Positions 2,232 to 63,170 of a DNA stretch of 64,000 nt are shown piece by piece. Made by a program: the position numbers and the translations under genes. Position 1 is the first letter of the stretch. Each line of letters opens with the position of its first letter. Origin of the DNA: Eledone cirrhosa (taxonomy: Eukaryota); NCBI GenBank assembly GCA_964016885.1, contig OZ024755.1:29636001-29700000 (forward strand), given 5' to 3'. Below the pieces are notes generated by a model, which did no database searches, was not told the DNA's origin, and saw only the letters and a list, made by a program, of their open reading frames with translations.

Positions 2232-3765
2232 GAGGTGAGTTTTATTGTAGTACAATAAAGCAATGCAGATATCGGATAAGAAGCACTCTACAATTTGTAG
2301 GACTGGAGTATACATAATATAAGATCAAAAGATGGTTAAAGGAGTTCCATGTATTTTATTATGCGCATTTCAAAAACAAACATCATCATGCAATAATATT
2401 TGTGTTTTCATCAGATAAAACAAGAGAACATGATATGAAGGCTAAAAAACACTTGTGGATAGTGCAGTTTTAAATCAACATATGAAAAGTGGTTTTAGAT
2501 TGATGTGTGATATTGGGAAAAATATTTTATTTAGAGAGGGGGGGTGGAAAGGATGAAAAAGGGAGGAGATGAGAGTGAAGGTGGAGAGGGAGAGATGGGT
2601 GATAGAGAGAAAGAGATAGTTTTTATAACTGAGAGAAGATATATTGTTTTACATAGAGACATTGAAAACCGTTGGAAGATAATGTATAAATTAAAAGAAT
2701 TTGAAAATTAACGAAGGGAAAAATATGTACGAGGAAAAAATATGTTATTTAGGGAGGGGGTGGAAAAGATGAAAAAAGGGAGTAGATGAGAGTGAAGGTG
2801 GAGAGGGAGAGATGGGTGATAGAGAGCAAGAGATAGTTTTTATAACTGAGAAAAGATATATTGTTTTACATATCAAAAGATATATTGTTTTACATATATT
2901 GTTTTACATATCAACCGTTGGAAGATAATGTATAAATTAAAAGAATTTGAAAATTAACGAAGGAAAAATATGTACGAGGAAAGAAAGGGAGTTTATGTAT
3001 GAAGATAGAGAGAAAAAATAATAATTGCGGATGAATATTCTAACGTCAAAAAGGTGTGTGTTGATAAGTATTGTGGCAATTTCAAAATTAACGAAGAGAA
3101 AAAATTATTAAGGTTTGTGTGTAGAAGGATTTGAGAAAGATAATGTGAAGTTAAAGTTTGTATATTGAAGGAATTGATAATATGTGCGAAGAAAGAGTTA
3201 ATATGTATTAAACAATTATTAAGGTTTGTGTATTAGATGATTTGAGAAAAATAATGTGAAGTTAAGGTTTGTATATTGAAGAAGTTGATAATATGTGCGA
3301 AGAAAGAGTTAACATGTATTAAGAATGAGTTCGTTGATGGGGCGAAAAAAATAATAAATTAAGGATGAAATTGAGATTAAAAAGTTTTATGAAAGAGAGA
3401 AAAAATAATAATAATTGCGGATGAATATTCTAACTTCAAAAAAACAAATGTATATGTTATGAAGGATTTTACAAGGTGAAGATAGAATGAGGGTAATGAG
3501 TAAACAAGTATTGTAGAGTGTATAATGCCCTTTGAAGTAAGGTAGGAAGATGGGTATATTTTAAAGAGGTGTATGTATATGTGCCTTTGAGAAAAGATTC
3601 TAAATTGATAAAGAATTGAATATTAGCTGTATACTTTGTGAAAGGTCCTATGGAATTTATGCAGGCAGATAGAAAAACAAATCTGTACGTCTATTTATTA
3701 TAGAATCTAGATTAGAGATAATGGTAAATTTTTCATTTAGGCAGAGATTACAGATTTTAGATAGT
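2232..3765 (-). mobile_element. 5'-truncated Penelope-like element: GIY-YIG C-terminus, ~1.3 kb 3' UTR with internal duplications, terminal hammerhead
   Basis: Minus strand 3765-3660 reads [30 protein letters not shown], matching NKFCNLCILETHNIIFSNRNLLNKKSEVFA of the large PLE. HHR at 2354-2420. Both ends lie in (AT)n tracts. Internal direct duplications at ~2525-2740/~2745-2985 and ~3100-3210/~3215-3320. Confidence 0.75.
2354..2420 (-). ncRNA. Type I hammerhead ribozyme
   Basis: Minus strand: ttttat CTGATGA aaac-acaaatattatt gcat gatgatgtttgt-tttt GAAA tgcgca TA ataaaa. Helix I is 6 bp, helix II is long, helix III is the palindrome atgcgcat, and the cleavage triplet is AUA. Confidence 0.85.
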
Positions 3766-6700
3766 ATATATATATACATACATACATACATAATATATAT
3801 ACATACATACATATATATATATACATACATACATATATATATATACATACATATATATATATATATACATACATATATATACATACATATATATACATAC
3901 ATATATATATACATATATATATATATACATACTATATATATATACATACATATACATACATATACATATATATACATATCATATACATATACATACATAT
4001 ACATACATATACATACATATACATATACATATACATATATATACATATACATATATATACATATACATATACATATATATACATATACATACATATACAT
4101 ATACATATAATATACATAATATACATATATATACATATACATATACATACATATACATATATATACATATATATACATATACATATATATACATATACAT
4201 ATATATACATATACATATATATACATATACATATATATATACATATATATACATATACATATATATACATATACATATATATATACATATATATACATAT
4301 ACATATATATACATATATACATATACATATATACATATATATACATATACATATATATACATATACATATACATATATATACATATATATATATATATAT
4401 ACATATATATATATATATATACATATATATATATATATATACATATATATACATATATATATACATATACATATACATATATATATACATATACATATAC
4501 ATATATATATACATATATATATACATATATATATACATATATACATATACATATATACATATACATATACATATATACATATACATATATATATACATAT
4601 ATATACATATACATATACATATATATATACATATATACATATATATATACATATATATATACATATATATATATACATATATATATACATATATATATAC
4701 ATATATATATACATATATATATACATATATATATACATATATATATACATATATATATACATATATATATACATATATATACATATATATATACATATGC
4801 ATATACATATCATATACATATACATATATATATACATATACATATACATATACATATACATATATATATACATATATATATACATATATATATACATATA
4901 TATATACATATATATATACATATATATATATACATATATATATACATATATATATACATATATATATACATATATATATACATATATATATACATATATA
5001 TATACATATATATATACATATATATATACATATATATATACATATATATATACATATATATATACATATATATATACATATATATATACATATATATATA
5101 CATATATATATACATATATATATACATATATATATACATATATATATACATATATATATACATATATATATACATATATATATACATATATATATACATA
5201 TATATATACATATATATATACATATATATATACATATATATATACATATACATATACATATATATATACATATATATATACATATACATATATATATACA
5301 TATATATATATATACATATACATATATATACATATATATATATATACATATATATATACATACATATATATATACATACATATATATATACATATATATA
5401 TATATACATATATATATATATATACATATATATATATATATACATATATATATATATATACATATATATACATATATATATATATACATATATATATATA
5501 TATACATATATATATACATATACATATATATATACATATATATATACATATACATATATATATACATATATATATATATATACATATATATATACATATA
5601 CATATATATATACATATATATATACATATACATATATATATACATATATATATATATACATATACATATATATATACATATATATATATATACATATATA
5701 TATACATATACATATACATATACATATATATATACATATATATATACATATACATATATATATACATATATATATATATACATATACATATATATATACA
5801 TATATATATATATACATATATATACATACATATATATATACATATATATATATATATACATATATATATATATATACATATATATATATATATACATATA
5901 TATATATATATACATATATATATACATATACATATATATATACATATATATATATACATATATATATATATACATACATATATATATATATACATATATA
6001 TATATATACATATATATATACATACATATATATATATATACATATATATATATATACATATATATATATATATACATATATATATATATACATATATATA
6101 TATACATATATATATATATACATATATATATATATACATATATATATATACATATATATATATATACATATATATATATATACATATATATATATATACA
6201 TATATATATATATACATATATATATATATACATATATATATATATACATATATATATACATATATATATATACATACATATATATACATACATATATATA
6301 TATATACATATATATATATACATATATATATATATACATATATATATATACATATATATATATATACATACATATATATATATACATATATATATATACA
6401 TATATATATATACATATATATATATACATATATATATATACATATATATATACATATATATATATACATATATACATATATATACATATATATACATATA
6501 TATACATATATATACATATATATACATATATATATACATATATATATATATACATATACATATATATACATATATATATATATACATATATATATATATA
6601 TACATATATATATATATATATATATACATATATATATATATATACATATATATATATACATATATATATATACATATATATATATATACATATATATACA

Positions 6701-6902
6701 TACATATATATATATATACATACATATATATACATATACATACATATATATACATATATATATATAAACATATATATACATATATATATATAAACATATA
6801 TATACATATATATATAAATATATATATATATATATATATATATATATATATATATATATAAATATATATATATATATATATATATATAAATATATATATA
6901 TA
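3766..6902. repeat. ~3.1 kb compound (AT)n/(ATATATATAC)n microsatellite
   Basis: Seen directly; includes a long run of the 12-mer tatatatataca at ~4860-5250. Confidence 0.97.
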
Positions 6903-61150: not shown

Positions 61151-61265
61151 TGTGGCTGAGTTGTTAGAGAATTGGATTCGCAGTCGTGAGGTTGTGAGTT
61201 CGGTTCCTGGAACAGGCGATGCGTTATGTCCTTGATCAAGACACTTTATTTCACGTTGCTCCTTC
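61151..61265 (+). mobile_element. Second tRNA-derived SINE (CORE-like body), partial
   Basis: tggctgagttgtt A-box, gagttcggttcc B-box, then tgtccttgatcaagacactt. Confidence 0.6.
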
Positions 61266-62994
61266 TACCTGGAGTTGAGACCGGTAGATAGTATTAGCAA
61301 TTGGAAAAACCAATGGAAACATTGTTTCCTTGGTCCGATTTGACGAAAGTCGATCGACTATCGATGGGTAACTTAATATCAAACCATTTAAGCACATAAC
61401 GCAGGGAACTGATAAAGTAAACACATATATACCCTGCAATATTTACTTCTTTGGCGCTATTTATGCAATCTATCTTTATCTGCAGCATAGAGTTCGCTTT
61501 GCCCAGGATAGCTTTGCCTTTCATCCTTACGGGGTCGATAAAATAAAAGTGGCTGTAATACACTAGGATAATTGCTGACCTTGTGCCTAAAGAAGAAACG
61601 TTAACAAAAGTTATTTCTTGTTTGTGTTTAGGCAACACACCATATATCTATATATGACCTGAAAAGTGAAAACCACACATTTAATTTCAAATCATTAACC
61701 CTTTATCATTTAAACTGGCCATATCCGGCCAGAATTCTCTCACCTCTTTCTTTTCAAACCGGCTGTAACTTGCTACTCTTTGAATCTTAACATACTTCCC
61801 ATTTAATATCCCCAACGCGTTCTTCGAGTTTGTTTTGTACAGTTTATTACACCGTAACAAAAATTACTCATTTATTTAATTATCAATTTTAATAATGAAA
61901 GTAATTTTAATCCTGTATCTCAGAACTATCACCCCTCTAAGCCTTTTATCTGGAATTAACACCCATAATTTGTATTTTGTAAACCTATTATGATTACAAG
62001 CCTATTAATTATTTCATTAATTGCATTTTAAATATTATTCAGTTGCCTCGAGTGTTTTGTTATTTTTTGTTGATTCCATTCAATTTTATGGACAAACCGT
62101 TCCTGAATAATTTTCCTTGCTGAACTATGTTTAATTACGTTATAAATAACGTATGCGTTCGTACAAGAAATTACTTCATTATGTCCCTACATTACCAGGC
62201 CCCGGTAATTGTTGCCGTCTGAAGAAGTGTATACGCTTAGAAAGTCAGAATAATTATATAGGTGGTACAGAGGGAATGAATTCATTTTCCTCGAGAGATA
62301 TTATTGAGAAAAATATTTAGCCCGCATAAATACGTATACGTGTGTGTGTCTGCGTGTACCTGCGTAGGTATATGTGGTTGTGTGTGTCTTAACGACTTTG
62401 ATTAGAAATGTCTCCAAAATATATAAAGAAAAAATAAGAAAATCTGCTTTTCTTCGGGCACATCTGGGTTACCAATGTCACGAAATAGAACTTTCTTCTT
62501 CAATACTTAAGAATTAAGAGTACACACGACTGCGAACTCACAACAATTTAACACTCATATGGTTTCCATTAATGGTTTCTAAAAATAAGTAAATTTCGTA
62601 CAGGGATTATAATCAACACTCTAGAAGCAAATAACAAAATCACGTTGAACGTTATCATAGTTTTCTCTGCATATGTCCTTATATTTCAACGATTTATAAA
62701 AAAAAAAGCAAGGTCTTTTCGTAATAGGAAATCAATTAATCTGGCAATATACGGAAAATTAGTTTCATTCTGCTTGCAAAAATCCTCTCAAACCTATTCA
62801 TTTGTATCATTATGCAAACAAAAGATAGCATTCCCTGTGTGGTAATGTGTGTATAACCCATGTGTGTTATTAAACACACACACACACACACACACACACA
62901 CACACACACACACACAAATTGTTTTGGGGGAAGTCAGTGAAATGGATCTGGTGTACACTAATACATATACATATGTATATATATATATATATAT

Positions 62995-63170
62995 GAAAAT
63001 GTTTAACCCCGACGGCAGAGCTCAAGCCGTTTCGACGGCTTAGCCGTCGAAACGGCTTCAGCTCTGCCGTCGGGGTTAAACATTTTCCTATTACCCACTC
63101 GACTACCCTAAGTATTGAGTACTCTGGTGCGTTACAGTCCACCTGGTTCCTTACCACACATCCTTCGTTA
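62995..63170 (+). mobile_element. 'Family B' short element: palindrome 62995-63087 with a hammerhead 3' half
   Basis: gccgtc GAAA cggc ttcagctct gccg TC gggg; palindrome centre at 63041. Confidence 0.7.

Follow-up and report, generated by a model that had tools for sequence, protein, structure and literature searches.

Type I hammerhead motifs in a 64-kb stretch of the Eledone cirrhosa genome and their association with the 3' ends of Penelope-like elements

The stretch of DNA analysed here (the window) comprises 64,000 nucleotides of contig OZ024755.1 of Eledone cirrhosa (positions 29,636,001 to 29,700,000, forward strand) and is part of the 3.0-Gb assembly GCA_964016885.1. Its GC content is 31.7%, (TA)n tracts are abundant and perfect (AT)5+ runs make up 10.7% of its length. 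The window contains hammerhead ribozyme motifs of 12 families (A, B, B2, C, D, E, F, G, H, I, J and K) and, at 6905–12819, a near-complete Penelope-like element (PLE) of the Hydra type that carries two of them. We estimate a probability of roughly 80% that the motifs are type I hammerheads situated in the 3' ends (pseudo-long terminal repeats, pseudo-LTRs) of at least seven PLE families and in two short non-coding units, that the copies derive from target-primed reverse transcription (TPRT) and that cutting is, as predicted, slow and mostly dimeric. For the families linked to coding sequence, we regard the element anatomy described below as highly probable.

A hand-written type I descriptor with an exact core gave nine matches in the window, against a mean of 0.07 (maximum 1) in 60 block-wise dinucleotide shuffles; the match at 9236 (−) is poor, lies within an open reading frame (ORF) and probably arose by chance. 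This descriptor replaced an earlier, stricter one that gave three matches and was judged too strict. Allowing one core mismatch raised the count to 16, against 2.1 in block-wise dinucleotide shuffles, and a second descriptor, with position 4 free and a long helix III permitted, returned 12 type I hammerheads against 0.07 in 30 shuffles. The hammerhead motifs are real and far above chance.

A first-pass annotation of the window, made from the sequence alone, had listed 13 well-formed type I sites and ten decayed or half copies. All 13 are hammerheads, and seven have the type I core CUGANGA…GAAA…UH with helices I–III in order (C3 at 2414−, 14962−, 15066+, 21258+, 21747−, 32007− and 41540+), as does an additional clean motif at 63701 (+), just past the range that had been covered. 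The other six keep the type I topology but deviate from the consensus at position 4, which had gone unremarked: U4C at 6988−, 12570+, 13052+ and ∼34222−, and U4A at 18200− and 46036−. Nine of the ten lesser sites are derived from hammerheads, namely damaged copies at 13858−, 18848−, 19152− and ∼43076−, motifs with an intact core and weak helices at 24077+, 42489− and 48074−, and 3' halves at 47424+ and 63049+. The tenth, 39696+, has two core mismatches, no GAAA and no relative among the loci compared and is unconfirmed as a hammerhead, leaving 22 of the 23 sites. The description of several unrelated families broadly holds, B resembling B2 and the two subfamilies of C resembling one another.

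The hammerheads at 6988− and 12570+ belong to the two arms of a single insertion of family A, an older relative of which lies further downstream:

6905–8666, minus strand: family A inverted arm, 5'-truncated, ending without a tail at (TA)n; U4C hammerhead at 6946–6992
8665–11122, plus strand: family A PLE ORF, reverse transcriptase (RT) then C-terminal GIY-YIG endonuclease; frameshifted near 10240–10270 in the window copy
11123–12819, plus strand: family A 3' untranslated region (UTR)/pseudo-LTR; U4C hammerhead at 12566–12612 with predicted cleavage base 12608; 3' end at 12655; tail to 12819
42913–43080, minus strand: older family A 3'-end relative, 74% identical; decayed U4C hammerhead at 43035–43078

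The inverted and forward arms differ at two positions in 1740 nt, and the ORF is read as two frames (8665–10266 and 10226–11122) with this single break between them. Elsewhere in the genome, 78 of 81 scored family A matches have an open frame of at least 780 residues with 99–100% identity. The 832-residue protein of locus L080 contains RWR, DKT, YRDD, CxCX5C, YVGST, CxxC and CxH motifs; in both A and G, RWR is a conservative change of RWK and DKT replaces DKG. Read by eye, the family A GIY-YIG domain contains one cysteine alone and no CCHH arrangement. The 832-residue ORF is 34% identical over its length to protein P0030, the GIY-YIG domain of which scores above the Pfam cut-off, and the nearest named protein relatives (42% identity) are from Argonauta hians. 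Twenty family A stretches show a 4,199-nt unit with an upstream partial copy of variable length and frequent inverted arms. Two 3' ends occur, 47 and 211 nt past the predicted cut (12655 and 12819 in the window); an identical 9-nt word follows both and is a candidate signal for two RT start sites. The insertion into (TA)n and the hammerhead near the 3' end are those of the Hydra clade, to which families A and G are putatively assigned by motifs rather than by an RT tree. Four contig runs cover family A, one of them with the tandem junction 12819→8665 and a summed depth that rises 3'-ward; they were not used, depth being no copy number there and the best-covering run possibly coming from the source sample itself.

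Seven of the 12 families can be traced to PLE ORFs encoding RT and GIY-YIG domains, with A, B, B2, G, H and K appearing to be of Hydra type and C of Neptune/Nematis type; for B, B2, H and K the label denotes tblastn similarity to Hydra-type proteins. Their further copies in the window are the following:

2352–2422, minus strand: family B2 hammerhead with a consensus core (C3 at 2414, predicted cleavage base 2360) and a palindromic helix III; Hydra-type PLE 3' UTR
12898–13240, plus strand: family B head-to-head pair; hammerhead at 13044–13108, U4C in this copy alone; tail at right end
13805–13863, minus strand: family B copy, GAAA damaged
14731–15341, both strands: family C head-to-head pair; consensus hammerheads at 14925–14966 (−) and 15062–15103 (+); tail at right end only
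18131–18339, minus strand: family G 3' end; hammerhead at 18155–18205 with family-fixed U4A and 17-nt helix III; Hydra PLE 3' UTR
18810–18850, minus strand: family C copy of the second subfamily, GAAA damaged
18916–19830, both strands: inverted insertion of family C; damaged hammerhead (19113–19154) in a 3' UTR on the minus strand, endonuclease fragment (19487–19792) on the plus strand
21252–21312, plus strand: family B hammerhead, consensus core
21709–21749, minus strand: family C hammerhead of the second subfamily, consensus core
34122–34225, minus strand: family H hammerhead, U4C; helix II domain of ∼80 nt; Hydra-type PLE 3' UTR
45991–46041, minus strand: family G hammerhead, U4A
47349–47547, both strands: family K head-to-head 3' halves at 47365–47391 (−) and 47424–47450 (+); 5' core absent
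62961–63170, both strands: family K head-to-head 3' halves at 63007–63033 (−) and 63049–63075 (+)

Walking upstream reached Hydra-type coding sequence in ten of 20 family B loci, and a Hydra-type endonuclease precedes three of 20 genomic B2 copies. In family G a Hydra ORF ends ∼950 nt upstream in ten of 16 stretches, which had been chosen for holding two matches; this ORF is 44–47% identical to that of family A in the RT, and CxCX5C, CxxC and CxH are found in its frames. A PLE ORF lies upstream of the hammerhead in four of 15 cases for H and in two of six complete copies for K. Family C was followed in the opposite direction, and a hammerhead was found downstream in 12 of 15 loci retrieved with the endonuclease fragment of the window. 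Its open frames of 1,123 and 1,150 residues contain YVDD in the RT, a CX4CxxC linker and a CCHH-type endonuclease, with two cysteines inside GIY-YIG and a histidine pair after it; the linker and endonuclease indicate the Neptune/Nematis type, the two being left unsplit, and the protein is barely alignable to that of family A. The endonuclease is C-terminal, not N-terminal, in A, C and G, which ruled out an assignment to Naiad.

Family K exists mostly as 3' halves. An exact 31-mer of its 3' half has 45,594 genome matches, whereas complete ribozymes account for just six of 25 matches of a pattern requiring the 5' core, and 76 of 78 incidental copies stop 0–29 nt upstream of G12. This hard stop in helix II, often with a palindromic junction, suggests fold-back of the cDNA at the apical hairpin. 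In the complete motif the triplet is GUC and helix III spans 6 bp (−7.1 kcal/mol).

The remaining families comprise two short non-coding units (E and J), two families for which walking revealed no parent (D and F) and family I:

24076–24127, plus strand: family F hammerhead whose core is intact and helix II weak; no parent found
31974–32012, minus strand: minimal hammerhead of family D with a consensus core; walking revealed no parent
41516–41958, plus strand: family E copy with tail; hammerhead at 41535–41612, consensus core; short non-coding unit
42439–42490, minus strand: family F hammerhead, intact core, weak helix II
48019–48135, minus strand: family I head-to-head pair; intact core at 48043–48075, atypical helices
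63697–63774, plus strand: consensus-core hammerhead of family J, whose short non-coding unit measures ∼518 nt at other genomic loci

Direct partial repeats were found in six of 20 family E loci (period 598–771 nt) and 11 of 20 family J loci (period 474–524 nt), with no frame longer than 93 residues in either; two pairs among the 11 J loci are probably the same or duplicated insertions. A non-coding type I unit in direct repeats is what characterizes non-LTR retrozymes, here seen as partial dimers only. Such units raise the question of whether most of the motifs are independent non-LTR retrozymes, that is, small tandem units replicating as circular RNAs, a model that would also accommodate families without a linked ORF: D and F, despite walking, and I, which was not followed. 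We consider it distinctly improbable as a general explanation. It is refuted for A, B, B2, C, G, H and K, which are continuous with PLE ORFs; neither the window nor the sampled loci showed a long multimeric array; and E and J themselves have a PLE tail, a (TA)n target and inversions, and on these grounds behave like non-autonomous PLE derivatives. The retrozyme-like interpretation offered in the first-pass annotation thus suits these two families and not the others. In family F, two copies have 1.76 kb of upstream sequence in common without an ORF match, and an apparent link to an adjacent Hydra ORF in locus L356 was discarded because a separate 3' end belonging to that ORF precedes the F segment by ∼70 nt. 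The 5' boundary of family D (31830–32070, −) is sharp, at 30–50 nt upstream of the core, and fold-back palindromes accompany it in the majority of 20 copies; a 519-nt 'period' in locus L169 proved to be nested inverted copies without a unit.

The PLE reading is borne out by the anatomy of the insertions. The hammerhead sits tens to a few hundred nucleotides upstream of one or two 3' ends that are fixed in each family and that adjoin (TA)n in all families examined, among them A, B, B2, C, D, E, F and J. The 5' ends are variable or sharply cut in all families examined, so that most copies consist of the last few hundred nucleotides of an element and appear as short ribozyme segments beside microsatellites. 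Where insertions are joined head to head, a tail is present at exactly one end in 34 of 36 cases for K, 11 of 13 for C, 16 of 18 for B, six of seven for J, 16 of 20 for G and 16 of 17 for A. Within single family A insertions there are 56 differences in 60,395 nt (0.09%), compared with 16,714 in 1,792,875 nt (0.93%) between insertions (19 stretches and the window, one overlapping stretch excluded; the pairs are non-independent), making the segments of one insertion about tenfold more alike than separate insertions. The upstream partial copies of this family range from ∼250 nt to more than a unit, which indicates that every insertion makes them afresh from a single template sequence; the observed identity is compatible both with a religated circle and with repeated template jumps. 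Two copies can be paired through their palindromic helix III in families A, B2, D, E and J, with energies of −4.8 to −13.4 kcal/mol; K and G have a longer intramolecular helix III, so the dimer model need not apply to them, and family C, considered below, also departs from it.

To place the window in its genomic context, a sample of 40 10-kb stretches, placed at round coordinates and spread over 17 contigs (400 kb, 0.013% of the genome), was scanned. The exact-core descriptor gave 36 matches (0.9 per 10 kb) against 0–2 in eight shuffles, and the position-4-free descriptor 42 against none. Bootstrapping the 40 counts gives 0.5–1.35 matches per 10 kb, which extrapolates to ∼270,000 genome-wide (150,000–400,000), variant cores and half copies excluded; the genome is thus likely to hold a few hundred thousand hammerheads. 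The identical scan of the window yields eight matches per 64 kb, 1.4 times the sampled mean, the one figure that would favour a local hotspot or a cluster of co-opted ribozymes. This explanation is very improbable: eight or more matches per 64 kb were drawn in ∼26% of bootstrap samples (P about 0.26), which makes the window typical, and its families recur on many contigs. The high density that had been reported therefore exists relative to shuffled sequence and not relative to the genome. The reported adjacency to (AT)n was confirmed and is directional, with (AT)5 within 300 nt downstream of 32 of 38 genome matches, compared with 17 of 38 upstream and with 28% of arbitrary positions on the downstream side. 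The sample also contains about ten further hammerhead families absent from the window (L034, L039, L040, L049, L055, L060, L063, L069), several of them as opposite-strand pairs, and family diversity must be well above 12. Exact-pattern genome searches, for which reversed-pattern controls gave no matches, were preferred for counting: a DNA search with the family A hammerhead gave nine matches, against 3,827 by exact pattern, and because common words are skipped in that search its counts were not used as copy numbers.

The invariant U4 of the hammerhead core is replaced by C in families A and H and by A in family G, which are classed as core variants. In family G, A4 is present in 18,211 of 18,399 exact 30-mer matches, with C, G or T in the other 188. 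C4 was found in 99 of the first 100 listed of the 3,827 exact family A matches, in 50 of 50 family A copies within stretches found through the protein and in 99 of 125 exact family H matches (another base in 26). Most copies of B, B2, D, E and J have the consensus core, which is kept exactly in 21 of 25 (B), 20 of 20 (B2), 19 of 20 (J) and 16 of 20 (E). U4C is known from a viroid, in which it is weak in vitro and still infectious (PMC3088659). The literature search, which covered few subscription papers, found no paper on a hammerhead with U4A; Lunse et al. (2017) may describe such cores, and U4A is absent from the text of PMC3088659. In File S2 of PMC8557442 position 4 is U in each of the 26 Hydra rows, although the descriptor used there may have required it.

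These variants lend weight to the view that the motifs are passengers: they would mark PLE ends, but cleavage would be unneeded for spread, and U4A and U4C would be ribozymes that are dead or dying, carried to high copy number by a successful master element. We judge this to be a real possibility, at somewhat better than one chance in three. The strong expansion of families A and G with changed cores accords with it, as does the complete absence of the 5' core in nearly all of the incidental K copies. So do several published observations: Naiad PLEs spread without canonical hammerheads (PMC8557442), ribozyme mutants leave insertion in vitro unaffected (PMC11167929), U4C considerably lowers activity in vitro (PMC3088659) and eight of nine Xenopus dimers remained uncleaved (bioRxiv 10.64898/2026.07.22.740005). 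Conversely, A, G and H retain the three helices and the remainder of the core, whereas position 7 of H is free to vary, and U4C recurs in A, in its 74–77% identical relatives and in H. Most families keep the exact core, the helices of family C may covary (three of ten helix pairs are changed on both sides between its subfamilies, with 96.7% of cells paired in nine sequences) and a U4C hammerhead supports viroid infectivity (PMC3088659).

On the reading that we prefer, in which the ribozymes are functional parts of PLE ends, the following sequence of events is proposed. A read-through transcript from an upstream pseudo-LTR would be bound by the RT-endonuclease, the endonuclease with its Cys linker presumably being the part that targets (TA)n (cf. 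PMC8557442). The enzyme would nick both strands of (TA)n, and priming would take place at two internal RNA sites located downstream of the hammerhead; in vitro, an anole PLE nicks and extends two strands, and its tail maps to two internal RT start sites (PMC11167929). TPRT from both strands together with early termination would produce short ribozyme-bearing ends joined head to head, and one RNA sequence may be copied more than once, either from a religated circle, a model that comes from PMC4209133, or by template jumps. The predicted ribozyme would cut slowly and mostly as dimers, trimming the precursor RNA to unit length and perhaps allowing circularization. Whether cleavage is slow or protein-assisted we would put at about even odds: a fast cut on linear RNA would part the priming sites from the ORF, and slow cleavage would allow family-fixed U4C and U4A cores to be tolerated or even favoured. 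A stronger version, which we advance tentatively and consider rather unlikely, is that no larger hammerhead population has yet been counted (some 300,000, with variant or half copies adding tens of thousands more) and that the U4A and U4C Hydra cores still cleave, attenuated or rescued by the protein of the element, to give a circular RNA of unit length on which reverse transcription begins at two fixed starts.

Several results weigh against the preferred reading. The Rfam check that had been suggested for the window failed to find hammerheads: there were no matches at the gathering score and, at E values up to 1, none among the 150 of 335 matches listed, nearly all of which were microRNA models on microsatellites, while RF00163 matched 18 of 74 candidates scored elsewhere in the genome. 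Folding energies were better than those of shuffles in just one of ten motifs (z = −2.7; the rest −1.6 to +0.6), which is expected of minimal motifs and yet provides no support in itself. Both results would suit matches arising by chance in AT-rich, low-complexity DNA. The probability of this we take to be negligible, since it is refuted by the comparisons with shuffles (12 against 0.07 in the window and 42 against 0 in 400 kb), and the empty reversed-pattern controls and the fixed position of the motifs relative to element ends also argue against it. Pfam and PDB sequence searches did not recognize the family A protein directly and Pfam was equally silent on those of C and G, so that all three were identified by their motifs and through homologues that have RVT_1 or GIY-YIG hits. 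Helix III of family C is non-palindromic (+1.4 kcal/mol), and covariation in this family amounts to one subfamily split and was non-significant by a pair-count measure (232 of 500 shuffles). Families D and F could be linked to no PLE ORF by walking. Gene conversion or assembly polishing could be an alternative source of the identity within insertions. Finally, a dead ribozyme did not impair the insertion of anole PLE RNA in vitro, and RNA-seq gave no reads ending at the cut (PMC11167929), so that the slow-cleavage step may be wrong.

The window contains further repeats. A Hydra-type PLE fragment at 44176–45964 has an endonuclease frame at 44457–45269 (+), a 3' UTR extending to ∼45964 and an inverted arm at 44176–44348; near its 3' end there is a core-like 7-mer at 45779 and no recognizable GAAA. 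Long near-perfect palindromes between (TA)n tracts, at 46877–47268 and 47906–48019, are ends of other elements; the latter resembles the family I tail and the former belongs to a family without an identified hammerhead. Kilobase-long degenerate (TA)n/(CA)n arrays lie beside PLE ends at 1–1516, 3765–6907 and 55712–56651. A dispersed ∼190-nt repeat, which we presume to resemble an octopus short interspersed element, occurs in at least seven copies (32067–32177, 37020–37195, 40257–40446, 42655–42852, 47812–47905, 59137–59323 and 61501–61599). By eye, the frames at 40575–40964 (−), 57934–58326 (−) and 59677–60248 (+) resemble C-terminal fragments of non-LTR retrotransposon proteins; the one that was scanned had no Pfam hit.

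The role of the hammerhead for PLEs is an open question (PMC8557442, PMC11167929). The genome of E. cirrhosa is a natural experiment in this respect, bringing together families with the consensus core, with U4C or U4A, with a long helix III and with half ribozymes. Should the U4A motif prove able to cleave, whole high-copy families are being missed by the accepted core consensus and by the descriptors based on it; should it prove unable to, this would be good grounds for regarding the ribozyme as dispensable. One Hydra family is very young and has dozens of open ORFs; it could provide the first in vitro system for the clade. At the estimated load, PLE ends would form a repeat class of substantial size, one that went undetected here by Rfam and Pfam.

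The basic arrangement has been published previously. The Hydra clade of PLEs, which includes Hydra-1_Obim of Octopus bimaculoides with a hammerhead and a (TA)n preference (Craig et al., 2021; PMC8557442), shares with the Hydra-type families a single ORF encoding RT and then, C-terminally, a GIY-YIG endonuclease, the RW[K/R], DKT, CxCX5C linker, CxxC and CxH motifs, the (TA)n target, a hammerhead near the 3' end, partial tandems, inversions and a tail often at one end. Unlike the Hydra elements of that paper ('generally <3 kb'), the units here are longer (4.2 kb in A and 3.3 kb in G), the 3' UTRs measure 1–1.7 kb, the tails are ∼45–165 nt rather than 30–40 nt and position 4 is C in A and H and A in G instead of U. 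At least six Hydra-type families coexist here, one of them very young. Family C resembles Neptune/Nematis in its CX2-5CxxC linker and CCHH-type endonuclease, its clade being assigned without a tree. Its two 3' ends, ∼45 nt apart, recall the anole Poseidon element PAc, which has two sites of RT start and a hammerhead that overlaps the start codon (PMC11167929), whereas that of family C lies in the 3' UTR.

The minimal PLE hammerheads described previously (PMC4209133; Lunse et al., 2017, as cited in PMC6765202) are likewise of type I, with an extra base between positions 9 and 10.1 and a short palindromic helix III, and occur mostly as solitary truncated copies and as opposite-strand pairs 100–700 bp apart, with many families per genome. 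The present motifs differ in the long helix III of K and G, in the ∼80-nt helix II domain of H and in number, the estimate of ∼270,000 comparing with 2,000–9,000 per genome in those reports and with 126,247 motifs in axolotl, the largest count in the literature searched (PMC7229834). The core variant that those reports describe is U3-A8 and not at position 4. Families E and J resemble non-LTR retrozymes (PMC7229834; bioRxiv 10.64898/2026.07.22.740005) as non-coding direct-repeat hammerhead units that are probably moved by PLE proteins, but their units are 0.5–0.7 kb rather than ∼300 nt and are seen as monomers or partial dimers only. A literature search for a cephalopod hammerhead census gave only PMC8557442 as relevant, which, with subscription papers poorly covered, is weak evidence of absence. 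Hammerheads at PLE ends, (TA)n targeting, the palindromic helix III and an Octopus Hydra element are already in print; the likely scale and the family-wide U4A and U4C cores are not in the literature searched and, together with the near-strict tail asymmetry and the young Hydra family, are what the E. cirrhosa elements add to these systems.

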